Shown here in pieces: positions 5,992-64,000 of a DNA stretch of 64,000 nucleotides; positions within the stretch are counted from its first letter, which is position 1; each line of letters starts with the position of its first letter. The stretch is taken from assembly GCA_041082245.1 (NCBI GenBank), contig JBDOIE010000015.1, positions 18,589 to 82,588 on the forward strand, in the 5' to 3' direction. The position numbers and the translations under genes are program-made. The DNA comes from Chloroflexia bacterium (GTDB taxonomy: Bacteria; Chloroflexota; Chloroflexia; DTKN01). The notes beneath the pieces were generated by a model that made no database searches, had not been told where the DNA came from, and saw nothing but the letters and a program-made list of their open reading frames with translations.

Positions 5992-6026
5992 AGGGCCGAC
6001 CGGTAGCGCTGGTGGGACATCGCCCG

Positions 6027-6827
6027 ATGGGATATACATTTGCCCTGGCCAATCAGAAAGGCGGCGTCGGCAAGACGACGACGGCGGTTAACCTGAGTGC
6101 CTTCCTGGCAAGGCAAGGGTACCATGTCCTCCTCGTAGACGGTGATCCCCAGGGAAATGCGACGACAAGCCTGGGAATCGCAAAGTCGAGGCTGCGGGCT
6201 ACCCTTTACGAAGCACTCCTGGACCACCTGCCCCTGGATCGGGTGATTGTCCCGACCGGACGTTCGGGCCTCGATCTTGTTCCAGCGACGGTGCAGCTTG
6301 CCGGGGCCACAGTGGAGCTGCTGGCACAGGAAGGGCGGGAACAGCGGCTGGAGCAGGTGCTGCGGCCGTACCGTGAGCTGTACGATTTCGTGTGCATCGA
6401 TGCCCCGCCTTCGCTCGGGCTGTTGACCATCAATGCACTTGTGGCTTCGCAGGGAGTGTTGATCCCGCTCCAGTGCGAGTACCTCGCGATGGAGGGCCTG
6501 GCGCAGCTTCTGGGGACAGTGCGGCGCGTCCAGCAGCGCCTCAATCCGGGATTGCAGCTGATCGGGATCGTGATGACGATGTACGACAGCCGCACGCGCC
6601 TGTCCCTGGAAGTTGTCCAGGAAGTGCAGCGCCATTTGCCTGGCCGAATGTTCCGCACGGTGATCCCGCGCACGGTGCGCCTGGGCGAAGCACCGAGCCA
6701 TGGCCGAACGATCTGGGAGTACGACGCCCACAGCTACGGGGCGCTTGCGTACGAACGGCTCGGGCAGGAGTTCCTGGCGCGCTTGGGGTTCACCGTCCCG
6801 GAACGGAAGGAGGGGGCGCATGTCTGA
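6027..6827 (+). CDS. parA: ParA/Soj chromosome-partitioning ATPase
   Basis: Deviant Walker A (ALANQKGGVGKTTTAVNLSAFLA) and DGDPQGN motif. ATG at 6027 chosen; the ORF track begins at a GTG at 6012. Confidence 0.85.
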   Translation: MGYTFALANQKGGVGKTTTAVNLSAFLARQGYHVLLVDGDPQGNATTSLGIAKSRLRATLYEALLDHLPLDRVIVPTGRSGLDLVPATVQLAGATVELLAQEGREQRLEQVLRPYRELYDFVCIDAPPSLGLLTINALVASQGVLIPLQCEYLAMEGLAQLLGTVRRVQQRLNPGLQLIGIVMTMYDSRTRLSLEVVQEVQRHLPGRMFRTVIPRTVRLGEAPSHGRTIWEYDAHSYGALAYERLGQEFLARLGFTVPERKEGAHV

Positions 6828-7665
6828 ACGCAGGCGGCTTGGGCGCGGGCTAGACGCGCTTATCCCCACGGCAGGAGAGAGCGAAGGGATCCGCGAAATC
6901 CCGCTGGAACGGATCGTGCCGAACCCCCGCCAGCCGCGCCAGCGGGAGGATCCCGAGGGGCTGCAGGAACTTGCTGCATCGATCGCGGCGCACGGGGTGC
7001 TGCAGCCGGTCATCGTGACCGAGGTGCTGGATGCGCTTCCGCCGACCTATCAGCTCGTCGCAGGGGAACGGCGCTGGCGTGCCGCGCGTCTGGCCGGGTT
7101 GACCACGATTCCGGCGATCGTGAAGGATGTCTCGCCGCGGCAGATGGTGGAGCTCGCGCTGGTCGAGAACCTCCAGCGCGAAGATCTGAACCCGCTGGAA
7201 GAAGCGGAAGCTTACCGGGTGCTGGTGGAAGAGTTCGGGTTGAACCACGACGATGTGGCACGTCAGGTCGGGCGAAGCCGGCCGGCTGTGACGAACAGCC
7301 TGCGTCTCTTACAGCTTCCCGAGCCCGTGCGGGAACGTGTGGCTTCGGGCGAGTTGTCGGCCGGGCACGCTCGGGCGTTGCTTTCGCTCCCTACGCCGGA
7401 GGCCCAGGTGAAGGCGATGGAGATCGTCCTCCGACGCGGGCTGAGCGTACGCCAGACCGAACGGCTCGTGCGCGGCCTCTTGCGCCGCAGAGAGCGAGGC
7501 GTGGCCACGCGGCGGGACGAGCCGGAGATCGCCGCCCTGGAGGCGCGCTTGCAAGGGTTGCTGGGCACCCGGGTCCGTATCCAGCGGGGGCGCAAAGGAG
7601 GCCGTCTCGTCATCTACTTCTTTTCCGACGAGGAGCTGGAAGCGCTGCTACAGCGTTTGGAATGA
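6820..7665 (+). CDS. parB: ParB/Spo0J partition protein
   Basis: ParB box (MSERRRLGRGLDALIP ... PNPRQPR ... QPVIV). ATG at 6820 follows GGAGGGGG and overlaps the parA stop by 8 nt. Confidence 0.85.
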   Translation: MSERRRLGRGLDALIPTAGESEGIREIPLERIVPNPRQPRQREDPEGLQELAASIAAHGVLQPVIVTEVLDALPPTYQLVAGERRWRAARLAGLTTIPAIVKDVSPRQMVELALVENLQREDLNPLEEAEAYRVLVEEFGLNHDDVARQVGRSRPAVTNSLRLLQLPEPVRERVASGELSAGHARALLSLPTPEAQVKAMEIVLRRGLSVRQTERLVRGLLRRRERGVATRRDEPEIAALEARLQGLLGTRVRIQRGRKGGRLVIYFFSDEELEALLQRLE

Positions 7666-7694
7666 CCCGCCTTTAGCGGGGCAAGGAGGAAACC

Positions 7695-8627
7695 ATGCCG
7701 CTGGTCAATTCGCGTGCACTGTTCGAACGGGCTTCGAAAGAGGGGTATGCCATCGGTGGGTTCAATGTGAACAACATGGAGATTCTGCAGGGAATCGTCG
7801 ATGCCGCAGAGGAGAAGCGTGCGCCTCTGATCCTTCAGGTCTCAGCCGGTGCGCGGCGCTATGCGCGCCACGAGTACCTGACGAAGCTGGTCGAAGCGGC
7901 GGTGCTGACGAGCAGTGTTCCGATCGTGCTCCACCTCGACCACGGGGAGGATTTCGCGATCTGCAAGAGCTGCATCGACGGCGGCTTTACCTCGGTGATG
8001 ATCGACGGGTCGCGGCTGCCGTTCGAAGAGAACATCGCCCTGACGCGGCAGGTCGTGGAGTATGCCCATCCCCGCGGTGTTACCGTGGAAGCGGAACTGG
8101 GTCGGCTGGCCGGGATCGAGGACGACGTTTCGGCCACCGAGCGTGAGGCGCGCTTCACAGACCCCGACCAGGCCGCCGAGTTCGTGGCACGTACCGGATG
8201 CGACTCGCTGGCCGTAGCGATCGGGACGAGCCACGGGGCCTATAAGTTCAAAGGGGAACCGCGTCTGGACTTCGATCGTCTGCGTGCCATCGTGGAGAAA
8301 TTGCCCCCGGGGTACCCGCTCGTGCTCCACGGGGCTTCCAGTGTCCTTCCTGAGTTGGTGCAGATCTGCAACGCTTACGGCGGCAATATCCCGGGTGCCC
8401 AGGGCGTGCCGGAGGAGATGATCATCGAGGCGCGCAAGATCGGCATCCGGAAGGTGAACATCGATACCGACCTTCGGTTGGCGTTTACAGGTGCGGTGCG
8501 CAAGTACCTGTTCGAGCATCCGGAGGAATTCGATCCGCGCAAGTACCTGGCCCCTGCCCGCGAGGCAATCCGCCAGGTCGTGCTCCACAAGCTGGACGTG
8601 CTGGGTTGCGTGGGAAAGGCCGACTGA
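7695..8627 (+). CDS. fba: Class II fructose-bisphosphate aldolase
   Basis: GGFNVNNMEILQGIVDAAEE, LHLDHG and HGASSV motifs. AAGGAGGA RBS 6 nt upstream of the ATG. Confidence 0.85.
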   Translation: MPLVNSRALFERASKEGYAIGGFNVNNMEILQGIVDAAEEKRAPLILQVSAGARRYARHEYLTKLVEAAVLTSSVPIVLHLDHGEDFAICKSCIDGGFTSVMIDGSRLPFEENIALTRQVVEYAHPRGVTVEAELGRLAGIEDDVSATEREARFTDPDQAAEFVARTGCDSLAVAIGTSHGAYKFKGEPRLDFDRLRAIVEKLPPGYPLVLHGASSVLPELVQICNAYGGNIPGAQGVPEEMIIEARKIGIRKVNIDTDLRLAFTGAVRKYLFEHPEEFDPRKYLAPAREAIRQVVLHKLDVLGCVGKAD

Positions 8628-53319: not shown

Positions 53320-56300
53320 ATGAGGGACCTGCCCCTCCTGAGCACCAAGTTCCTGGTTCCGCGGCTCCAGCCGGACCATCTGCCGCGAGAACGGCTCGTG
53401 CGGCAGCTTGGGGTAGCCTTGTACAAGCGTCTTGTGCTACTCTCAGCGCCGCCCGGATACGGGAAAACGACCCTGCTGGCGCTGTTTGCGCGGCAAACGG
53501 AGATTCCCCTGATCTGGTATCAGCTCGATGCGACGGACAACGATCCGATCCTGTTCCTGCACTCCTTGGTCACCGGGTTTCGGATGCGCTTTCCCGGCTT
53601 TGCCCCTGCGACCACAGCATTGCTGGAGGATCATCGCCAGCAGCCCGACCGGCTGCTGGCCGTGTTGCTGAACGAGGTGACAGGCGAGATCAGACCGGAC
53701 GTGCTTCTGGTACTGGAGGATTATCACGCGATCCGGCATCCTGATGTCCACCGGCTGGTACAGTTCTTGCTGGATCACCAGCCGCCGCAGCTGCACCTGT
53801 TGCTTTCCACCCGGGAGGAGCCTCCTCTATCCCTGGCCGGCCTACGCGCAGCCGGCGAGCTCATCGAGTTGCGTGCTGCCGACTTGCGGTTCACAACCGA
53901 GGAGATTTCGCAACTTACGGCATCCCTGGAACTGGGCGAAACACTCGTCGATCTTCTCGCAGAACGCACTGAAGGGTGGCCTGCGGGTCTGCAGCTTGCG
54001 CTCGCGGCGCTGGCACAGAGGCCGGGAGTGCCGCCTCAAGAGGTCGTGCGGCGCTTCCGGGGGAACCACCGCTTCGTTTTCGATTACCTGGCCGAAGAGG
54101 TTTTCGAACGCCAGCCTCGCGAGGTACAGGATTTCCTGTTGCGATCTTCCATCCTGGAGCAGATGAGCGCGCCGAGCTGCAACGACATCCTCGGGATCGA
54201 CAACGCGAAAGTGCTCCTTGAAGAGCTGGAGAAACGGAACCTTTTCCTGCAGGGCCTGGATGAAGAGCGGCGCTGGTACCGATACCATCAGCTGTTTCGA
54301 GATTTCCTTCTGGATCGCCTCTACCGGCAGGGCGAAGAAGAACCGCTTCGGTTGCACGCGCGGGCTGGCGACTACTACGCCGAACAGGGAATGTGGGATC
54401 TGGCCGCCGAGCACTACGTCGCGGCACGGAGCGTTCCAGGATTGAGCCGGGCGGTCCGCGCGCTTGCTCCGTGCTGTCTGCAGAGTGGCCGCCTGGAGAC
54501 CCTATACCGTTACCTTTTGGCCTTACCGCCTCGGGTCTTCGAAGAGGAGCCGGACTTGCTTCTGTACCAGGGGCAGGTGTTCCGCCACTGGGGCAGGGTC
54601 GAGGAAGCGGTCGCTTGTTACGAAAGAGCACGTTCCCTTTATGAGGTGCGCGACGAACGGAATGGGCTGTCGCGCGCGCTGAGCGAGCTGGCTTACATCG
54701 CGCTCTCGCGTGGCGAATACCGGGATGCCCAGCGGCTGGCGCAGCAGGCTCTGGGTGCCGCAGGACCGCACGACCATCTGGAACGATCCTCGGCACTGAT
54801 GGCGCTGGCGCGTAGCACTGGTTTCCTGGAAGGGATGGAACGCGGGTGCAAGCTCGGGGAAGAGGCACTTCGCGAGGCGGAGGTCGCTGATCCCCCGCTG
54901 CCTCGGACGGCCCGGGCGCGCCTGCTGCTTTCTCAGGCCCAGTTATGTTGGTGGTACGGGGACCCTTTCGCTACTGTGGGCCATTGTCAGGCGGCGCTGG
55001 ACGCGGAGCCTGAGCCGGTTTCGCCTATTGCCTGCCGGGCCTTTGTCATTATGGTCAGCCCCCATCTCTATTGGGGCAACTTTTCGTTAGCCCGTGACCT
55101 TGCACAAAAGGGCCTGGCGTTGAGCGAGCAACTCCAGTACACCGAGTGGCGGCCGATGGCACATGCGGCGCTGGGCATGGTGCTTTCTCGCCAGGGCCAG
55201 CTGGCTCTAGGGGAGAAGCACCTCCGTGAAGCGATCTCGCTGGCCCGTCGCCTGGGTGCGGAAAGCTACGCGCAGCTGATGGCGGCCGGGTACCTTGCAG
55301 CGAACCTGAGCCAGCAGGGCCGGCTGGCGGAAGCTCGCCGCTGCTGCGAAGAGGTCCTGCATCTATACGAGGCCAACCAGGAGACCTACGAATACTCGGT
55401 GTGCCGGAGCGTGCTGGGCGATGTGTTGATGGATATGGGGGATCTGGACACGGCGTGGGAGTATTTCCTGAGCCTGCGGCAGATCGATGAGGCGCGACAG
55501 TTCCGTCTGCCGTTGGCGATGGTCCATTTTGCTCTGGGCTACCTGCATCTCTTGGCCGGCCGTCGGGACCCGGCGCTGGAGGCCATCCGGGATTCGATGG
55601 AGATCATACGCCAGACAAACACGGTCGTCCTCTATCTCGACCAGGGGCAACGCGCAGCTGCCGTGTGTCGAGCGGCACTCGAAGCTGGGATCTGCCCCGA
55701 TCTCGCGCGCCGGATCCTTGGGATGCTTGGCGCCGATGGGCAGCTGGCCGTGGAGCCTTGCTATGAGGCCCGTACATCCACCGAGCCGGTCGACCGGCGG
55801 AGGCCCTTCGAGATCGTAACGCTTGGCGGGTTCCGCGTCTTCTACGAGGGGCGTGAGATCGGGAAAGAAGCCGGGTTGGTGGGGCGCCCCAGGGAGATGC
55901 TGGCCTATTTCATCACCCATCGGTACGAGCGCCTTCCCCTCGACCGGATCGTGGAAGACCTTTGGCCCGGGTGCGCTCCGGAACAGGGACAAGCCGTTTT
56001 TCACACCACGCTGCACCGGCTGCGCCGTGCTTTGAGCCGCGTCGCCGGCCCAGGAACCTATGTCCGTCACGATGGCGGAGAGTATCAGCTGGAGGCCGAG
56101 GCATTTCGCGTGGACGTCGACACGTTCGAGGCCTGTCTGCAGCGTGCGCGGAGCAGCGTCGGCACCAGTGCACAACGCGCCTGCGAAGAGGCAGCCCAGC
56201 GCTATGGGGGAGCGTACCTGGTTAACCTGTACGCAGACTGGTGCGAAGCCGAACGCCGGAGGCTCACCTCGGCCTATCTGGAAGTGCTCCGCACGCTTGT

Positions 56301-56577
56301 CGCGGCGTATACCGCTGCCGGGGACTATACGCGTGCCGTTTGGGCATGCGAGCGAATGCTCGAGGTCGATCCGCTGCTGGAAGAGGTGCACTGCGAGCTG
56401 ATGCGGCTCTGGCACCGGATGGGGAATCGTGCGGCGGTCATCCGCCAGTACGAGCGCCTCGTCCAGCTGCTCGCGCAGGAGGTGTGTGCAAGCCCCTTGC
56501 CGGAAACGCAGCGCCTCTTGCGGGAGCTGCTGGCTCGGCCAGCAGGCGCCATCCTTGACAATCCGGGGCCTTTCTGA
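53320..56577 (+). CDS. Large ATP-dependent transcriptional regulator: MalT-like STAND NTPase N-terminus, TPR-like repeats, C-terminal OmpR-type winged helix plus BTAD (SARP-type) module
   Basis: N-terminus (LLSTKFLVPRLQPDHLPRERLVRQL ... LLSAPPGYGKTTLLALF, Walker B LVLEDYH) resembles MalT. The C-terminus (FEIVTLGGFRVFYEGREIG ... MLAYFITHRYERLPLDRIVEDLWP ... then a BTAD helical repeat) resembles SARP/AfsR DNA-binding domains. Confidence 0.6.
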   Translation: MRDLPLLSTKFLVPRLQPDHLPRERLVRQLGVALYKRLVLLSAPPGYGKTTLLALFARQTEIPLIWYQLDATDNDPILFLHSLVTGFRMRFPGFAPATTALLEDHRQQPDRLLAVLLNEVTGEIRPDVLLVLEDYHAIRHPDVHRLVQFLLDHQPPQLHLLLSTREEPPLSLAGLRAAGELIELRAADLRFTTEEISQLTASLELGETLVDLLAERTEGWPAGLQLALAALAQRPGVPPQEVVRRFRGNHRFVFDYLAEEVFERQPREVQDFLLRSSILEQMSAPSCNDILGIDNAKVLLEELEKRNLFLQGLDEERRWYRYHQLFRDFLLDRLYRQGEEEPLRLHARAGDYYAEQGMWDLAAEHYVAARSVPGLSRAVRALAPCCLQSGRLETLYRYLLALPPRVFEEEPDLLLYQGQVFRHWGRVEEAVACYERARSLYEVRDERNGLSRALSELAYIALSRGEYRDAQRLAQQALGAAGPHDHLERSSALMALARSTGFLEGMERGCKLGEEALREAEVADPPLPRTARARLLLSQAQLCWWYGDPFATVGHCQAALDAEPEPVSPIACRAFVIMVSPHLYWGNFSLARDLAQKGLALSEQLQYTEWRPMAHAALGMVLSRQGQLALGEKHLREAISLARRLGAESYAQLMAAGYLAANLSQQGRLAEARRCCEEVLHLYEANQETYEYSVCRSVLGDVLMDMGDLDTAWEYFLSLRQIDEARQFRLPLAMVHFALGYLHLLAGRRDPALEAIRDSMEIIRQTNTVVLYLDQGQRAAAVCRAALEAGICPDLARRILGMLGADGQLAVEPCYEARTSTEPVDRRRPFEIVTLGGFRVFYEGREIGKEAGLVGRPREMLAYFITHRYERLPLDRIVEDLWPGCAPEQGQAVFHTTLHRLRRALSRVAGPGTYVRHDGGEYQLEAEAFRVDVDTFEACLQRARSSVGTSAQRACEEAAQRYGGAYLVNLYADWCEAERRRLTSAYLEVLRTLVAAYTAAGDYTRAVWACERMLEVDPLLEEVHCELMRLWHRMGNRAAVIRQYERLVQLLAQEVCASPLPETQRLLRELLARPAGAILDNPGPF

Positions 56578-56583: not shown

Positions 56584-56746
56584 CACTTGTGTAGACATTA
56601 TCTCCCTTTCTCCATCTGTATCCCGGCATCCCGAACCCGGGTGTGCGTTGCACAGCCCGAGCGTATTTGCCTACAGAGAGGAGGTGGTCGCCGCTAGCTG
56701 TTCCTCCCGCTTCCCGTGGATCCAGGCTGAGAGCAAGGAGGTTACG

Positions 56747-59700
56747 ATGAACTGGAGCCGAATCCTGCGGCTACTCGGTGTACTGGTGCTCCTCGTGATC
56801 GGCCTAGCGGCGCTTCCTTCGGTCGCGACCCCGAACAGCAAGATCGAGCCGGCACTCCTGGAGAAACTCGCCGCGGAACGGACCGCTGATTTCATCGTCC
56901 GCTTTGGCGAACAGGCGGACCTCAGTCCTGCCTATCAGATGGGCTGGAAAGAGCGCGGCGAGTTCGTTGTGCGCGCGCTGACCGAAGTGGCCGAGCGCAG
57001 CCAGGCGACGGCAAAGACCTACCTGGACGGGCGCGGTATCGCGTACCGGACGTTTATCGCGGGCAACGAACTATACGTCTGGTCGGGCGATCTCGCCGCC
57101 GCCAACCGTCTGGCCGAGTTTCCCGAAGTGGCTTTCATCCGGGCTACCCGCACGTACTACGTGGATCCGATCATCTCCAACGAGACAAACGCCGCGCCGC
57201 ACGCGCTTGACTGGGGCATCTTGGATACAGGAGCAGATGACTTTTGGGCCGCTTTCGGCGTCCAGGGCGACGGCATCGTAGTTGCGAACATCGACACCGG
57301 CGTCCAGTGGAACCACCCCGCCCTCGACCAGGCCTACAAGTGCGCTTCGAACCCGACCAGCCCTGCCTGCTGGTACGATCCTTCCAGCATCTGCGGGGGT
57401 ACCGTGTGCGACAACAACGGCCACGGCACGCACACGATGGGCACGATGGTCGGGGACGACGATCCCTCGCTAGCCTATCAGGTCGGGATGGCGCCGAACG
57501 CCCTGTGGATCGCCTGCAAGGGGTGCGAGACGAACTCGTGCTCGGATTTCGCCCTGAACGCCTGCGCGGACTGGATCCTGCAACCCGATGGCAACCCGGC
57601 GAACCGCCCGCACGTGGTGAACAACTCCTGGGGCGGGGGTGGGTGCGACACCTGGTACCAGGCGAAGGTACAGGCCTGGCGCGCGGCCGGCATCTTCCCC
57701 GCCTTCTCGGCCGGGAACTCGGGTTCTGGCTGCGGCACGCTGGGTAGCCCCGGGGACTATCAGGAGTCGTTTGCCAGCGCGGCACACGATGTCTCCCGCA
57801 ACATTGCCTCCTTCTCGAGCCGGGGTCCTTCCTGCTTCGGGCACGATCCGTACACGAAGCCGAACATCTCGGCCCCGGGTGTAAACGTCTGCTCCTCGGT
57901 GCCCACAAACGCCTGGAGCTGCACCTACAGCGGCACCTCGATGGCCAGCCCGCACTCCGCGGGGGCGGTGGCGCTGCTCTGGTCGTGCAACCCGAGCCTG
58001 ATCGGCCAGATCGACCTGACCTTCGAGGCCCTCCAGAACACCGCGGATACGCCGCCGGCCGGAAACTGCAATGCGCCTCCGGACGGTGAGGGGAACTATA
58101 CCTACGGCTACGGATACCTCAACGTGTACCAGGCCGGCCTCCAGTACTGCGGCGGTGTCGCGCTGGGCTACCTGCAGGGCCACGTGTACGATGCCGACAC
58201 CGGCAGCCCGATCGGGGGAGCCAACGTGATCGCGGTACCGGGTGGCCAGATCCTCGCGGTCACGGATCCCACGGGCTACTACACGATGTCCCTGGTCCCC
58301 GGGGTCTACGACGTGACGGCCTCGAAGAACGGCTACGACTCGCAGACGGTCCAGGACATCCACATCTACACCGACACTGTGACCACCCAGGACTTCCAGC
58401 TGCACTTCCTTGGCCAGTGGACGTTGCTTCCGGACAACCCGTTCGACTACACCCGCTTCGACTGCGTCTGGTTCGACGACGGGACGGGACCCTCGGCCTA
58501 CAACCAGAAGGTCTACTGCCTCGGCGGGCGCACCGGCTCCACGACCGAGGATCCCTCTATCTGGCGCTTCGATCCGGTAACCCAGGTCTGGACGGATACC
58601 GGGCACGACGTCTACGAGGATGTCTCCAACTACACCGCCAACCTGCTGCGGGACGAGAACTATGACACCCAAGGGCTAGCGATCTACATCGTCGGTGGGT
58701 ACGACGCGGAGGGCGGCGGCTATATGCCCATTGTGCAGCGTTACTACCCCAAGACCGGGCTTGCGCAGAACGTCCCCGACGACCCCTGGCCGGTAATGGT
58801 CGGCGGGTACAACACCATCCCCGGAGCGTGCGTCAGCACCTCGGATCTGACCAAGATCTACTGCTTCGGCGCCTGGGAGAGCAACGCTGCGCCCTATTTC
58901 TCCGCCCAGACCTGGGAGTATGACCCGACCCGGCCCGACACCCAGCGCTGGCAGCAGATCACCACGGCCAACCTGAGCGTGCCACGGGGTTACATCCTGG
59001 CCGCGGTCCAGGGCACCAAGATCTATGCCATAGGCGGTGACTACCAGTACACGGGCGGCGATCTGGTGCCCACGGACATCGTCGAGGTGCTCGATGTGAC
59101 CAACCTGGCCGCGGGCTGGTCGACCGTGGCCTCCATGCCCATCCCGCTGTCCCAGGGGCGTGCCTTCGGCCTCGATGTCGACACGCTGGGAGTGAACGTC
59201 CCCGTGGGCAAGATTTACACCGCGGGCGGCGGCGACTGGCCGAACGAGACCACCGAGGCGATGGAGTACGACGTGGCGTCCGACACCTGGAATCAGGCCT
59301 TCCCCGATCTGAACATCGCCCGCCGCAACCACGCTGGTGTATACATCCCGCTGTGCACGCCCGATGATCCGACCGACCTGATGCCTTCGCTCTTGGTGGT
59401 CGGAGGCCGGAGCGGCTCGGATGTCCCGCCCTACCCCCAGCCGGAGTACTTCCCGTTCTCCTGCTCGATCTGTGAGCCGGTCGAGATCCTGTCGGTCATT
59501 ACCACGACCGAAGGGTGCGTCGTCTCCTTCAGCGCGGAGGTAACGGGTACCGAGCCGATCGACTTCCTGTGGGACTTTGGGCCCTTCGGGACGACCACGG
59601 AGACGAACCCGATCGTGGACTTCCAGGCGAGCGGCACCTACGCCTACACGTTGACCGTCTCCAACTGCGGCGGTACCGACAGCTGGAGCGGTACAGTCAC

Positions 59701-59767
59701 GGTCGAGTGTGCGCCGCCGATGTGGGAGATCTACCTGCCTGTCGTCTTCAAAGCCTACGAACCTTAG
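56747..59767 (+). CDS. Secreted multi-domain subtilisin-like serine protease (S8): signal peptide, I9-like propeptide, S8 catalytic domain, CarbopepD-reg-like beta-sandwich, Kelch-type beta-propeller-like region and a C-terminal PKD-like domain
   Basis: AAGGAGG RBS. MNWSRILRLLGVLVLLVIGLAALPSVA signal. Catalytic triad motifs (VANIDTGV, HGTHTMGT, GTSMASPHSAG). Repeated ...YxxGG... blades. C-terminal WDFGPFGTTTE...YTLTVSN PKD-like motif. Confidence 0.85.
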   Translation: MNWSRILRLLGVLVLLVIGLAALPSVATPNSKIEPALLEKLAAERTADFIVRFGEQADLSPAYQMGWKERGEFVVRALTEVAERSQATAKTYLDGRGIAYRTFIAGNELYVWSGDLAAANRLAEFPEVAFIRATRTYYVDPIISNETNAAPHALDWGILDTGADDFWAAFGVQGDGIVVANIDTGVQWNHPALDQAYKCASNPTSPACWYDPSSICGGTVCDNNGHGTHTMGTMVGDDDPSLAYQVGMAPNALWIACKGCETNSCSDFALNACADWILQPDGNPANRPHVVNNSWGGGGCDTWYQAKVQAWRAAGIFPAFSAGNSGSGCGTLGSPGDYQESFASAAHDVSRNIASFSSRGPSCFGHDPYTKPNISAPGVNVCSSVPTNAWSCTYSGTSMASPHSAGAVALLWSCNPSLIGQIDLTFEALQNTADTPPAGNCNAPPDGEGNYTYGYGYLNVYQAGLQYCGGVALGYLQGHVYDADTGSPIGGANVIAVPGGQILAVTDPTGYYTMSLVPGVYDVTASKNGYDSQTVQDIHIYTDTVTTQDFQLHFLGQWTLLPDNPFDYTRFDCVWFDDGTGPSAYNQKVYCLGGRTGSTTEDPSIWRFDPVTQVWTDTGHDVYEDVSNYTANLLRDENYDTQGLAIYIVGGYDAEGGGYMPIVQRYYPKTGLAQNVPDDPWPVMVGGYNTIPGACVSTSDLTKIYCFGAWESNAAPYFSAQTWEYDPTRPDTQRWQQITTANLSVPRGYILAAVQGTKIYAIGGDYQYTGGDLVPTDIVEVLDVTNLAAGWSTVASMPIPLSQGRAFGLDVDTLGVNVPVGKIYTAGGGDWPNETTEAMEYDVASDTWNQAFPDLNIARRNHAGVYIPLCTPDDPTDLMPSLLVVGGRSGSDVPPYPQPEYFPFSCSICEPVEILSVITTTEGCVVSFSAEVTGTEPIDFLWDFGPFGTTTETNPIVDFQASGTYAYTLTVSNCGGTDSWSGTVTVECAPPMWEIYLPVVFKAYEP

Positions 59768-59787
59768 GGTGTAACGCGGAAAGGAAC

Positions 59788-59820
59788 GGGGCCCGGGGAA
59801 TGCCCGGGCCCCGTTTTCTT
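59788..59820. terminator. Intrinsic terminator: 10-bp stem GGGGCCCGGG / CCCGGGCCCC (GAATG loop) followed by GTTTTCTT. Bidirectional between the protease gene and the convergent minus-strand gene.
   Basis: Read directly. It is 20 nt after the protease stop. The T-run overlaps the stop of the minus-strand gene. Confidence 0.7.
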
Positions 59821-60664
59821 ACTGGCCGGCGAAGGTATCCAGCAGCAGCGCGAGTGCCTCGGCGACGTCGCGATGCGTGTCCCCGGTGCACTGGCTGGCC
59901 AGCACGTCTACGAGCTCGTGCAGCCTTGTGGCGGTTTCTGGCGGAAGGTGCGACAGCATGGCGCGCGCCTGTTCGGCCAGGTCAGGGGCGTGGGCAAAGA
60001 GGGGACGTGCGTAGAGCAACGGGCGCAGCTGGGCGGAAAGGTAGAGCAGGCGGGCACGGGGCTCCCAGCGGGCCATCTTCCAGATCGTGACGTCGTCTTC
60101 TTCCTTTTCCATCTGGTAGGCGGCCAGGGCGACCTGATCGTCGATGAAACCGTGCTGCACCAGCAGCCGCACTGCTTCGAACCCCTTGATGGCGATGGCG
60201 ACATAGTAGAGCACCTGCTGGAGCACTTCCATCTCCACGCCCCGCGCGCGGCTCAGGAGGATCAGGCGGCGCGGGATGGAGAAACGGTAATAGTCCGGCC
60301 GGCCGTGCAAGACGCTATGGGCGACCACCTGATGTAATGCTCCCCGTTGCAAAAGGGGTGGGTGGCAAAGGAGTCGCTCCAGGCATACATTCAGCCGTGG
60401 GACGCCCTCCCAGGCATCGTGCGTGGCGAGAAATCCCTCCTCCCCGGCAGTGACCACGCCGGCCTCGAGCCGCTTCTGCGCGCTGTATGTGCGCCACGCC
60501 TCGAGCGTCTCGAACAGGGCAAGCACCACGGTGTCAGGCGTACGTACGGTGAGCGCCCGGTAGCACAACTCGATTTCCCGGAGGATGGCCCGGCAGGTGT
60601 CTTCCGAGACTTCCCCGTACGTCTCGATCTCGATCTGAGGCACGTCTTTCAGACCATGGTCCAC
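59819..60664 (-). CDS. Hypothetical protein (281 aa), translationally coupled downstream of sbcC. No recognisable domain.
   Basis: GTG start at 60664 with a GGAGGAGGG RBS embedded in the sbcC 3' end (16-nt overlap). Balanced composition. No Mre11/SbcD phosphoesterase motifs. Confidence 0.5.
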   Translation of the reverse strand: MDHGLKDVPQIEIETYGEVSEDTCRAILREIELCYRALTVRTPDTVVLALFETLEAWRTYSAQKRLEAGVVTAGEEGFLATHDAWEGVPRLNVCLERLLCHPPLLQRGALHQVVAHSVLHGRPDYYRFSIPRRLILLSRARGVEMEVLQQVLYYVAIAIKGFEAVRLLVQHGFIDDQVALAAYQMEKEEDDVTIWKMARWEPRARLLYLSAQLRPLLYARPLFAHAPDLAEQARAMLSHLPPETATRLHELVDVLASQCTGDTHRDVAEALALLLDTFAGQ

Positions 60665-63228
60665 CGGCTGCCCTCCTCCGTCCGTTCGATTTCGATTCGC
60701 ACCGGGAAACGCTCCTTCAGCTCCTGGAGGTGCGTGATCACAAGGATTTTCTCGAAATCGCCTTCGACTGAGTGGATCGCCTCGACGAGCTTTTCCCTCC
60801 CCTGGGTGTCCTGGCTGCCAAACCCCTCGTCGATCACAAGCGTCTGGAGGCGTGCCCCGGCGCGCCGCGCAAGCAACCGGCTCAAGGCGATCCGCAGCGC
60901 AAAGTCGATGCGGAGCTTTTCGCCGCCGGAAAACATCTCGTAGGGCCGGGTACCGCGCAGGTCCGACACGTGGATATCGAGCGTCTCCTGGACCGTGCCC
61001 TTTTGCGTCACCCGCTGCATGGCGACCTGCACGGACATCTCTCCGTCGCTCATCTGGCGCAGCAGCAGGTTCGCTTCCTGTTCGATTTCCGGTACGGCGG
61101 ATTCGATGAGCATTGCCTGTACACCGCGCTTGCCGAGCGATTCCAGGAGCTCCTGATAGATCGCTACCTGATCGCGGCGCTTCTTGAGTTCTCGTTCCTT
61201 CTCCTTGCGCTCTTCACCCAACCGCTCGAGCTGCTGCAGCTCCCCCAGCGCGGCGCCGAGCGCTTGATCCGCGCGCTGGAGCTGGAGTTGCGCCGATTTC
61301 CAGGCGCTCTCCAATTGCTGCCGGCGGTGCTGCAAGGCCGCCCATTCGGCAAGCACCTCTTGCAGCTGCTGCAGTTGCGTCTCTACGCATTGAAGCTCGT
61401 CTTCCCGCTCCAGGAGTGCAGTCCGTGTCTCGCCGAGGAGCCGTTCCTCCGCCTCGAGCTGCATACGGGCCGCGGTGAGCTGCCGGTATTCCCCTTCGAT
61501 CCCTCTCAAGCGCAGCAACTCCTTCCGCAGGGCATCGTGCTCCGCCCGATCGTAGGGAAGCGTCTCCAGTTCCTGACGCACCGCCGTTAGGGCCCTGCGT
61601 GCCTCGTGGGCGAAATCCCCGCCTGCGAGTGTATTCTCTATGCTCGCCAGCGCCGCTTGGTCCCGAGCCTGATCCTGAGCAAGATGCTCCAGTTCTGCGA
61701 GCATCCGCTCCAGCACCGCCCGCTCCTGCTCGAGCAGGCTGCGTCCTCGCAACTGCTCTTCCAATTCCTGGAGCTTGCCGCGCAAGCGGGCGATCTCCTT
61801 CTCTTCCTGCTGGGCGGCGGCTTCCCTGGCGCGGTAGAGGTCTCTTTTCTCCTTGTCCTCCGCTTCATAGCTTCGCCGCACGCGTTCCAGACCCTCGGCA
61901 CCCAAAGGGCTCTGGCACAGGGGGCAGTTCGCCTCGCCTTCCGCGAGAAGCGCCAGTTTCTCCCGCAGCAGTGACATCTCCTCCCTAAGACGCTGGCATT
62001 CCGCGCGAAGGGTCTGGACGGTTTCCATCCGGGCACGCTCTTCCGCCTGAAGGGCTGTTCGCTGCTGCTCCAGTTCTTGAGCCTGCTCGAGCTGTTGGGC
62101 CAGCCGATTCAGTCGCTCGAGGAGCTGCGGGCGTTCCCGTAGCCGGTGCTCCCGTTCCGCGATCTGCCGGCGGAGGACTTCGCGCTCCGTCACGTAGCGA
62201 CTGCGTTCCCTTTCGATCGCTTGCTCGAGTTCACGAACCTGTTCCGCAAGGGCAAGGCGCTGCCCGGCCATCCGGGAGAGCTCTTCGTTCCGCTCCTGGA
62301 GCTGCCGGAAATGCATGTACGCCGCTTCGATCTCCGGGGCCTGCTCCAGGATCCGACGGGCGGCCTCTACGCGCTCCTGTTGTTGCGCGCAACGCGCGCG
62401 GAGTTGTTCGACTTCCGATTTCAGGCGGGTTCGCCGTTTTTCCGTCTCCGTGAGGTGTAACCGTTGAGCCTCGAGTTCGGACATCCGCGCGCGAACTTCT
62501 TCGAGGGCGCGCCATTGCCGGTCGAGTTCTTCCTGCCATCGGGCAACATCCTGGGCTGCCTGCTCTTTCGCCCTTTCCAGTTCCTCCTGGCGTGCGAGCT
62601 GGCGCTCCAGTGCTTCCAGCGCGATCGCCAGGTCCTGCACCCGGCGCTCTTCGAGCCGGAGGCGCTCGCGTGCCCGTTCCTCTAGGCGCTCGTAATACGC
62701 TAACCCAAGGATATCCGCGAGGACTTGTTTCCGTTCGGCTGGTGGTTTCAACGTGAACAGATCTGCTTTTCCCTGAAGCAGGAAGGACGAGTTCACGAAG
62801 GTTTCATAGTCCATACGCAGGAGATCGACGATCCGCCTTTCAGTCTGTGGTACATTTTCCCCGGCGATCGAGCGCCAGCCCAGAGGGCCAAAGGCTTCCA
62901 GCTCCAGACGGGTGCGCCCGGACTTTTTCCCTGCGCCGGCCCCGCCTCTCTGCGCCCGTTCTCGCTGCCGGCGGACCCGGTAAGGGGTTCCTTCCAGAAG
63001 GAATTCGAATTCCACCTCCATCTCGTTCGCCCCGGTGGAGATGAGGTCGTCATCCGTGCGTCCGCGGGCGCGCCCCCAGAGCGCCCAGGTGATCGCGTCG
63101 AGCAAGGCGGACTTGCCGGCGCCGTTCGGGCCGGAGAGGCACGCCAGGTGGATATCGCCGAATTCGAGGGGTGGAAGGCCCTCGCGGTAGCACATGAAGT
63201 TGCGTAGTCGCAACGCGACCGGGATCAT
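60649..63228 (-). CDS. sbcC: SbcC/Rad50-like SMC-family ATPase with a zinc hook (CPLCQ)
   Basis: N-terminal Walker A (LSGPNGAGKSALLDAITWALWG), long coiled coils, a central CxxC hook, and a C-terminal signature (FSGGEKLRIDFALRIALS) plus D-loop (LVIDEGFGSQD). ATG at 63228 with a GGAGGTG RBS. Confidence 0.85.
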   Translation of the reverse strand: MIPVALRLRNFMCYREGLPPLEFGDIHLACLSGPNGAGKSALLDAITWALWGRARGRTDDDLISTGANEMEVEFEFLLEGTPYRVRRQRERAQRGGAGAGKKSGRTRLELEAFGPLGWRSIAGENVPQTERRIVDLLRMDYETFVNSSFLLQGKADLFTLKPPAERKQVLADILGLAYYERLEERARERLRLEERRVQDLAIALEALERQLARQEELERAKEQAAQDVARWQEELDRQWRALEEVRARMSELEAQRLHLTETEKRRTRLKSEVEQLRARCAQQQERVEAARRILEQAPEIEAAYMHFRQLQERNEELSRMAGQRLALAEQVRELEQAIERERSRYVTEREVLRRQIAEREHRLRERPQLLERLNRLAQQLEQAQELEQQRTALQAEERARMETVQTLRAECQRLREEMSLLREKLALLAEGEANCPLCQSPLGAEGLERVRRSYEAEDKEKRDLYRAREAAAQQEEKEIARLRGKLQELEEQLRGRSLLEQERAVLERMLAELEHLAQDQARDQAALASIENTLAGGDFAHEARRALTAVRQELETLPYDRAEHDALRKELLRLRGIEGEYRQLTAARMQLEAEERLLGETRTALLEREDELQCVETQLQQLQEVLAEWAALQHRRQQLESAWKSAQLQLQRADQALGAALGELQQLERLGEERKEKERELKKRRDQVAIYQELLESLGKRGVQAMLIESAVPEIEQEANLLLRQMSDGEMSVQVAMQRVTQKGTVQETLDIHVSDLRGTRPYEMFSGGEKLRIDFALRIALSRLLARRAGARLQTLVIDEGFGSQDTQGREKLVEAIHSVEGDFEKILVITHLQELKERFPVRIEIERTEEGSRWTMV

Positions 63229-63245
63229 CGTGCACCTCCGAAGGT

Positions 63246-63274
63246 AGTCTAGCATATAGCGACTCTCGGCGCAA
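63246..63274 (-). promoter_or_regulatory. Sigma70-like promoter for sbcC: TTGCGC, 17 bp, TAGACT, read on the minus strand
   Basis: Read directly. About 18 nt upstream of the sbcC ATG. Confidence 0.4.
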
Positions 63275-63280
63275 CCGCGT

Positions 63281-63309
63281 TTGTCCCGGGGGCCTATGTG
63301 TGCTATAAT
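63281..63309 (+). promoter_or_regulatory. Sigma70-like promoter: TTGTCC, 17 bp, TATAAT (TG-extended), for the PfkB-kinase gene
   Basis: Read directly. 28 nt upstream of the ATG at 63338. Confidence 0.5.
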
Positions 63310-63337
63310 CGGTATATCGTGGGGTACAGGAGAGCGC

Positions 63338-64000
63338 ATGGAAGAGGCGTGGCAGCCCGAAGTCCTCGTGATCGGCGCAGCGTGCCTGGATATCAAGGGG
63401 CACGTGTCCGGCCCCGTGCATCCCGGAACCTCGAATCCCGGGCGCGTACGTATCAGCATTGGCGGGGTTGCCCGTAACATCGCCGAGAACCTCGCGCGAT
63501 TGGGGACACGCACGACGCTGCTCGCCGTCGTGGCGCGTGATCCGTTCGGGGAGCAGATCGTGAAGCACACGGGCGCCGCGGGCGTGGACGTGAGCCAGGT
63601 GCTCTTCAGCCGCGACCAGCGGACCAGCGCTTATCTAGCGATCGTGGATGGGGAAGGGAACCTTACGGCCGCAGTGGATGACACGGCCACGACGGCAGAA
63701 TTGACCCCGCGCTACGTCTACCGGCGGCGCCGCCTGTTTCGAGCGGCGCGCATGGTTGTGGTCGATGCCAACACACCGGTCGCCACGGCACAGACGGTAC
63801 TCCGGATCGCGCATCACTACCGAGTTCCAGTATGCCTCGATCCTGTTTCCTATGAGTTGGCGCGCAGGTACCGGGAGCTGATCGGCCAATTCCACCTGTT
63901 GACCTGTGGACAAGTGGAAGCCGAGGCGCTGCTCGAGCAACCTGTACGTTCGCGCCGCGAGGCGACCGCAGCGGCGCGGCGGCTCGTCAGCACTGGCACT
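63338..64000 (+). CDS. PfkB-family carbohydrate/nucleoside kinase (ribokinase/pseudouridine-kinase-like), 3' end outside the window
   Basis: EVLVIGAACLDIKGHV ... GGVARNIAENLARLG pattern. The frame is open to the window end. Not in the ORF track because it has no stop. Confidence 0.6.
   Translation, partial: MEEAWQPEVLVIGAACLDIKGHVSGPVHPGTSNPGRVRISIGGVARNIAENLARLGTRTTLLAVVARDPFGEQIVKHTGAAGVDVSQVLFSRDQRTSAYLAIVDGEGNLTAAVDDTATTAELTPRYVYRRRRLFRAARMVVVDANTPVATAQTVLRIAHHYRVPVCLDPVSYELARRYRELIGQFHLLTCGQVEAEALLEQPVRSRREATAAARRLVSTGT

Follow-up and report, generated by a model that had tools for sequence, protein, structure and literature searches.

A conserved, translationally coupled sbcC–X gene pair in one Chloroflexia lineage, with X from a family of predicted zincin-like fold

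What is the role of a gene that overlaps sbcC where sbcD would be the expected companion? SbcCD/Mre11-Rad50 is normally taken as an obligate two-gene unit. SbcC and SbcD have been reported to co-occur systematically in genomes (PMC1193525). The locus considered here lies in a stretch of 64,000 nucleotides from a Chloroflexia bacterium (GenBank assembly GCA_041082245.1, contig JBDOIE010000015.1, positions 18,589 to 82,588; hereafter the window), in which an initial annotation had noticed a Rad50-like sbcC without adjacent sbcD, coupled to a gene for a 281-residue protein of no recognisable kind (gene X). The product of X was proposed to be a non-canonical nuclease, a regulatory partner of SbcC, a component of a repair or defence module, or unrelated cargo. 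Our analysis establishes a conserved, translationally coupled sbcC–X bicistron in one Chloroflexia lineage, and also that the X family and the SbcC subfamily occur independently of one another elsewhere. The explanation that we favour, at a probability of about one half, is that the coupling provides co-expression of an otherwise autonomous X and does not create a new SbcC–X nuclease machine.

Both genes are carried by the reverse strand. The sbcC gene (60649..63228, 859 residues) extends from an ATG at 63228, with GGAGGTG located 5 nt before it, to a TGA at 60649-60651. Its mechanically called open reading frame (ORF) reaches 63570, but the 99% identical homologue P0195 also counts 859 residues. 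Gene X (59819..60664) starts with a GTG at 60664 and stops with a TAA at 59819, so that its first 16 nt are also the last of sbcC (60649..60664). A Shine-Dalgarno-like sequence, GGAGGAGGG (60671..60679, reverse strand), lies 6 nt ahead of the GTG, still within the 3' end of sbcC. The translational coupling proposed in the initial annotation is thus borne out in the window, and its junction is kept in relatives as detailed below.

Judged by its motifs, SbcC is an intact Rad50-type ATPase with a zinc hook, as had been claimed. The two parts of the ABC-type head are present, with the Walker A motif GPNGAGKS (residues 33-40; 63109..63132), the signature FSGGE (residues 766-770; 60919..60933), the Walker B and D-loop LVIDEGF (residues 797-803; 60820..60840) and a VITH H-loop, all encoded on the reverse strand like the CPLC zinc hook, which sits in the middle of the long coiled coil (residues 435-438; 61915..61926). 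Pfam matches comprise AAA_23, SMC_N, SbcC_Walker_B and Rad50_zn_hook (25.3 bits for a cutoff of 24.3). The top NCBIfam match is TIGR00618 sbcc (292.8 bits, E = 5e-87), at a score below the curated cutoff of 478.5, and close homologues are named "SMC family ATPase" or "AAA family ATPase" at NCBI.

The recurrence of the pair was evaluated by a tblastn comparison of the window SbcC with all loci encoding X homologues. Besides the window, a full-length SbcC directly upstream of X was found exclusively in seven species-level Chloroflexia metagenome-assembled genomes (MAGs; loci L002-L011), which answers positively the question of whether the pairing recurs in related genomes. Pair-carrying MAGs include GCA_049970175.1, GCA_036172265.1, GCA_964592645.1, DAOTVY01, DAOUAK01, JAFGKG01 and CAZTIG01. 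Identity to the window ranges from 58 to 80% for X and from 52 to 68% for SbcC. For 18 X clusters and 18 SbcC clusters of the protein collection, the longest source contigs are identical in length, so that the pairing can be followed to SbcC proteins of as little as 47% identity. Seven of the eight genomes (the window and six others) retain the 16-nt overlap, the eighth having a spacer of ~100 nt. At loci L005, L006, L008, L009, L010 and L086, the junction is the same as in the window, SbcC ending with ...RWTxV* and X beginning with MDxG... In conserved junctions, X starts with ATG, GTG or TTG, and a purine-rich stretch upstream, kept in six related loci, is the equivalent of the Shine-Dalgarno-like sequence of the window. 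The flanks are far more variable. Upstream of the pair, four contexts were found: a PfkB gene (window, L005 and L009), a PhoR-type kinase gene (L002), small ORFs together with a DEAD/HNH/MZB helicase gene (L085), and the gene for ribosomal protein S21 (L086). On the downstream side, three contexts occur: an S8/Kelch peptidase gene, a gene with a PRiA4_ORF3 domain, and a small ORF followed by YceG. Since the flanks vary while the pair stays, sbcC–X behaves as a unit within the lineage.

Outside this lineage, the two genes go separate ways. Homologues of X amount to 47 clusters in a word-seeded search and to 266 representative clusters in an exhaustive profile search, which makes X a real, conserved gene. 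The clusters listed are single-domain proteins of up to ~330 residues, mostly of 250-300 residues. Among species-representative genomes, the family is present at 80 loci, mostly from Bathyarchaeia, with further members in Hadarchaeota, Nitrososphaeria, Brockarchaeota and one Asgard MAG, and in the Dehalococcoidia, Anaerolineae and Chloroflexia classes of Chloroflexota. SbcC was absent by tblastn from the 73 other loci of these 80. No conserved neighbour of X emerged either when ORFs within 4 kb were clustered over the 80 loci, the largest cluster being a major facilitator superfamily (MFS) transporter found at nine of them. No model of Pfam, NCBIfam or PADLOC matched X; 22 of its relatives, searched one by one against Pfam and NCBIfam, gave nothing meaningful (the sole match was Emfourin, E = 0.079), and the family profile had no match among PDB sequences. 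A tblastn search of phage and plasmid collections with X returned no match. The X family is therefore undescribed in the libraries and literature searched. In one Bathyarchaeia MAG (L001, 6988-9449), an X homologue is flanked by a tyrosine-integrase gene on one side and a VapBC (PIN/VapB) pair on the other; no other context seen for the family resembled a mobile element.

The missing sbcD can be considered independently of X. In the 64-kb window, which includes only ~770 bases past sbcC on its upstream side, neither a phosphoesterase motif nor a tblastn match to Escherichia coli SbcD was found, in agreement with the initial annotation. The same two approaches detected no SbcD in ~1 Mb of related loci. 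Adjacency to an Mre11-type nuclease was thus observed neither in the window nor within 8-10 kb at the related loci. Numerous proteins of 850-860 residues from Dehalococcoidia, Anaerolineae and other Chloroflexota, at ~40-46% identity, group with the window SbcC. Five homologues of 41-46% identity were sampled on long contigs (P0221, P0256, P0231, P0222 and P0308), and none has a Metallophos/SbcD gene or X within 5-6 kb; two unannotated genes upstream of P0221 have no Pfam match. As all five lack both genes nearby, the separation of sbcC from sbcD characterises the ~850-residue Chloroflexota SbcC subfamily and is not due to X. In a previous study (PMC3175470), SbcD/SbcC-type pairs of Chloroflexus and Dehalococcoides, non-fused and non-canonical, were concatenated, from which the existence of Mre11-type genes in the phylum can be deduced. 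This is the only work in the literature searched that touches on non-canonical pairs; no direct description of the SbcD arrangement in Chloroflexi, of an orphan sbcC or of an HExxHxxxH motif was retrieved. In the plasmid collection, no Chloroflexota record appears among the SbcD matches listed. Of the SbcC homologues without X, the closest (46% identity) is encoded on a 450-kb contig (L087, JGI 3300028903, genes at ~6001-8580), where many small unannotated ORFs, a helix-turn-helix gene and an HU gene give the surroundings a phage- or mobile-element-like look. The start of this sbcC is overlapped by a gene for an unknown 176-residue protein and a gene for an unknown 568-residue protein comes after it, both without Pfam matches.

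Which kind of protein, then, is X? It contains none of the calcineurin-like motifs of Mre11/SbcD (D-x-H, G-D-x2-D, G-N-H-D/E) and has no Metallophos match in Pfam, as anticipated in the initial annotation. An AlphaFold2 model built from a 46-sequence alignment (predicted local distance difference test score [pLDDT] of 91.5 and predicted template modelling score [pTM] of 0.90) displays an α/β N-terminal domain (residues ~10-130) followed by a C-terminal helical bundle. The β-sheet and active-site helix of the modelled domain correspond to a zincin fold. The structural search suggested for the 281-residue protein was informative in part: Foldseek against PDB and BFVD gave no match at E ≤ 0.001, but the weak top matches (M61 aminopeptidase, lethal factor, YbeY and SprT-like proteins) are all zincins. 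On the strength of this model, X can be placed as a remote member of the zincin-like fold class without close solved relative. The protein is also acidic, with a mean isoelectric point of 5.5 and a net charge of -9 in the clade of the window, properties that speak against a direct binding of DNA.

The alignment of 155 family members reveals a conserved pocket and a motif that has been lost by part of the family. H116, H120 and K160 are conserved at 100%, and H82 and Y126 at 99%. The usual helix reads R-H112-E113-x-x-H116-S-x-L-H120-G, i.e. a canonical HExxH plus another histidine. The HExxH motif is found in 101 of the 155 sequences, at all 63 archaeal genome loci and at eight of the nine Chloroflexota loci unlinked to SbcC (five of six from Dehalococcoidia, L012 from Anaerolineae, L053 and L074). 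The window protein lacks it. Its helix is degenerate, H111-Q-V-V-A-H116-S-V-L-H120-G121 (60302..60334, reverse strand), and H-Q-V/I replaces HExxH in SbcC-linked X proteins from seven of seven genomes and in 37 of 37 linked protein clusters. Only five positions are conserved within both the HExxH group and the linked group yet carry distinct residues in each: 112 (H versus Q, respectively), 113 (E versus V), 161 (D versus G) and two with conservative hydrophobic changes. In the window, codons 112 and 113 of the alignment are at 60326-60331 and codon 161 at 60182-60184, the latter inside the segment AIK160-G161-FE163 (60176..60193; all on the reverse strand), in which the family-invariant K160 is followed by a glycine in place of the aspartate that co-varies with HExxH. 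D161 is present in 101 of 101 members with HE and kept in only three of the 54 without; P0040, which has E113 as well, is a fourth keeper.

From this co-variation, H112, E113 and D161 would form one catalytic unit, acting as zinc ligand, general base, and third ligand or histidine-orienting aspartate, respectively. The 54 members without HE are spread over several separate lineages, as if this unit had been discarded several times with the H82/H116/H120/Y126/K160 pocket being retained everywhere. Such a pattern suggests that a putative metallopeptidase has become a non-catalytic protein more than once. Because the first histidine, the catalytic glutamate and the co-varying aspartate are all replaced, the window X is most likely not a canonical metallopeptidase. 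On the other side, retention of H82, H116, H120, Y126 and K160 suggests that X probably shares its core biochemical role with many relatives unlinked to SbcC, most plausibly the binding of a metal or of a peptide-like ligand. An exact coincidence between HExxH loss and SbcC linkage was considered and rejected, since P0038 and P0051 are devoid of the motif and have no SbcC before them. In P0051, the nearest unlinked relative (44% identity), HE is already gone and no SbcC is present in the 170 nt upstream. In the P0038 lineage, whose motif is degenerate and which has no SbcC linkage, another upstream gene overlaps X over 17 nt. It codes for an acidic protein of 169 residues without Pfam match (L090, 226-735) and is itself preceded by the apparent C-terminus of a Lon-type protease. 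This represents a second, independent translational coupling of X.

Taken together, these data are best accounted for by the following scenario. In one Chloroflexia lineage, an otherwise free-standing X gene would have come to sit directly behind sbcC. The two genes would constitute an operon: they share an upstream region, no terminator separates them, a ribosome-binding site inside sbcC accompanies their overlap, and X is followed by a strong hairpin. SbcC would presumably work with a nuclease encoded elsewhere, because the genes of its subfamily are generally not found beside sbcD. As for X, it may no longer cleave peptides and yet keep a ligand- or metal-binding pocket. Three considerations weigh against this reading. 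The pair has outlived several rearrangements of both flanks with its overlap kept in nearly all genomes, and a selection for joint function would give the same pattern. Moreover, as no sbcD was found for the pair-carrying genomes in the window and the ~1 Mb of related loci, the unlinked nuclease is an assumption. Finally, the window X may have a residual metal-dependent activity in its retained pocket.

The persistence of the pair leads naturally to the idea that X is a lineage-specific accessory subunit, i.e. a pseudo-protease made in a fixed ratio with SbcC that would bind SbcC or its substrates, such as protein-blocked DNA ends, and regulate or target the complex, SbcD being supplied from elsewhere. 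We regard this possibility as plausible, though less likely than co-expression alone. The pairing does recur within the lineage, so that X may be a regulatory or accessory partner as initially proposed. Against this reading stand a family that is unlinked to SbcC at 73 of 80 loci, the same loss of catalytic residues in the unlinked P0038, P0051 and RRQ group, SbcC homologues that work elsewhere without X, and an acidic X that has no recognisable DNA-binding or SbcC-binding element. A bolder version, in which a catalytically dead zincin-fold protein was recruited in this lineage as a stoichiometric subunit of the Rad50-type ATPase, either adapting the complex to protein-blocked DNA ends or structurally replacing the Mre11-type partner, appears unlikely.

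Even less probable is a replacement of SbcD by X as a metal-dependent nuclease on a zincin/YbeY-like scaffold that would provide SbcC with cutting activity. An orphan sbcC is just as usual at loci lacking X. Furthermore, most of the X family carries the classical peptidase HExxH and is unlinked to SbcC, the third histidine of YbeY is a tyrosine in X, and hhalign between the X profile and E. coli YbeY gives a non-significant probability of 1.8%. The acidity of X goes in the same direction, as does the treatment of Chloroflexus and Dehalococcoides as having non-fused SbcD/SbcC-type pairs (PMC3175470). The proposal of a non-canonical nuclease, which also has to contend with the degenerate HExxH, is not supported. 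The remaining idea, an anti-phage defence module of the Lamassu or another SMC-ATPase type with X as effector, seems very improbable to us. It draws on PADLOC matches of SbcC to LmuB (81 bits) and mad3 (69 bits), but the SbcC model scores far higher (293 bits) and the match to LmuB reflects general SMC/Rad50 similarity. The Lamassu arrangement, an LmuB-type ATPase with an LmuA effector in a variable defence island, was not found, the chromosomal neighbourhood being a conserved one. X has no PADLOC match and no homologue in the phage and plasmid collections, and the pair is vertically inherited within its lineage amid metabolic and housekeeping genes. The defence module put forward in the initial annotation is thus not supported. 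We therefore retain co-expression of an autonomous X as the preferred explanation of the coupling.

The boundaries of the transcription unit are consistent with such an operon. The terminator scan revealed no terminator-like element between sbcC and X. Directly after the X stop codon, a GC-rich hairpin (59786..59814, reverse strand) combines a perfect 12-bp stem with a CAUUC loop, at a fold energy of -30.3 kcal/mol (z-score of -4.8), in the gap where X and the S8 peptidase gene converge. Owing to a weak T-run, it was not called by the consensus terminator scan; it is likely the terminator of the sbcC–X transcript and probably acts bidirectionally. At the other end, 109 bp separate sbcC from the divergent PfkB-family gene (63229..63337), with a single sigma-70-like site on the forward strand (TTGTCC-17-TATAAT, 63281-63309). 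The PfkB kinase gene (63338..64000, forward strand, ATG at 63338, Pfam PfkB 5e-29), rightly named as the upstream neighbour in the initial annotation, is cut by the end of the window and lies outside the unit.

More broadly, the products encoded over the 20 kb next to the pair are a GH1 glycosidase, a CoA-transferase, an aminotransferase, a CN-hydrolase, an Opp-type ABC transporter, an AAA/TPR/BTAD regulator and a secreted S8-Kelch-PKD peptidase. These surroundings are metabolic and constitute neither a defence island nor a mobile element. The peptidase is a large secreted S8 subtilase with CarboxypepD_reg, Kelch β-propeller and PKD domains, encoded on the forward strand (56744-59767) and convergent with X; in L010, the sbcC–X pair is flanked by two paralogous copies of it. 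Adjoining the peptidase gene, a regulator of 1085 residues (53320-56577, forward strand) combines AAA_16, TPR/MalT-like and BTAD domains in a SARP/LuxR-like STAND architecture and is syntenic in L005. In another Chloroflexia MAG (KM4338-10; L085, 4340-6829), an MrfA-like helicase of 829 residues (DEAD, Helicase_C, HNH and MZB) with an inserted HNH nuclease domain is encoded ~600 bp upstream of sbcC–X on the same strand.

Two points make this locus of interest: the conserved coupling of sbcC with X and the subfamily-wide separation of sbcC from sbcD. A large ~850-residue Chloroflexota SbcC subfamily is routinely encoded away from Mre11-type genes, and one lineage has fixed beside its sbcC a translationally coupled partner of an entirely different predicted fold. 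This partner comes from an unannotated and mostly archaeal HExxH zincin-like family, in several lineages of which the catalytic triad appears to have been lost independently. Should X bind SbcC, it would illustrate the use of a pseudo-protease in DNA repair and be a Rad50 accessory factor of a new type. Otherwise, the pair would be an ordinary lineage-specific operon, whose lasting value would lie in the definition of a zincin-like family that is new, through its conserved residues and its co-varying H112/E113/D161 unit. The sbcC–zincin operon is undescribed in the libraries and literature searched: Rad50-type ATPases and the zincin fold are both of familiar kinds, and the novelty resides in their arrangement and in the degenerate branch of the family.

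How does the pair compare with known systems? With E. coli SbcC (b0397), the window protein shares the Walker A, signature, Walker B and H-loop heads and a central CxxC hook in a long coiled coil. BLASTP aligns both head lobes at 28-32% identity, and the window protein is ~190 residues shorter (859 versus 1048 residues). The gene order differs as well: in E. coli, sbcD precedes and overlaps sbcC, whereas the window sbcC has no sbcD before it and overlaps a non-nuclease gene after it. Regarding X, the DNA-protein crosslink proteases SprT/Spartan and Wss1 are weaker structural matches than generic zincins, and the window protein differs from them by its acidity and by the absence of HExxH and of a DNA-binding domain. 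YbeY (UPF0054) is characterised by an H-x3-H-x5-H site, whose third ligand corresponds to Y126, and X has an additional helical C-terminal domain of ~150 residues; neither this site nor a profile similarity to YbeY was found in X, although H116-x3-H120 might still serve as a metal site in a YbeY-like manner. Finally, the systems nearest to the modelled fold are zincin metallohydrolases, including a putative hydrolase from Chloroflexus (3cmn), M48/BepA, M9 collagenases, M1 and M61 aminopeptidases, thermolysin and anthrax lethal factor, with no relationship detectable at the sequence level. The window protein departs from these enzymes by the loss of the first histidine and the catalytic glutamate, and its whole family is set apart by an extra invariant histidine four residues past the motif, together with H82, Y126 and K160.

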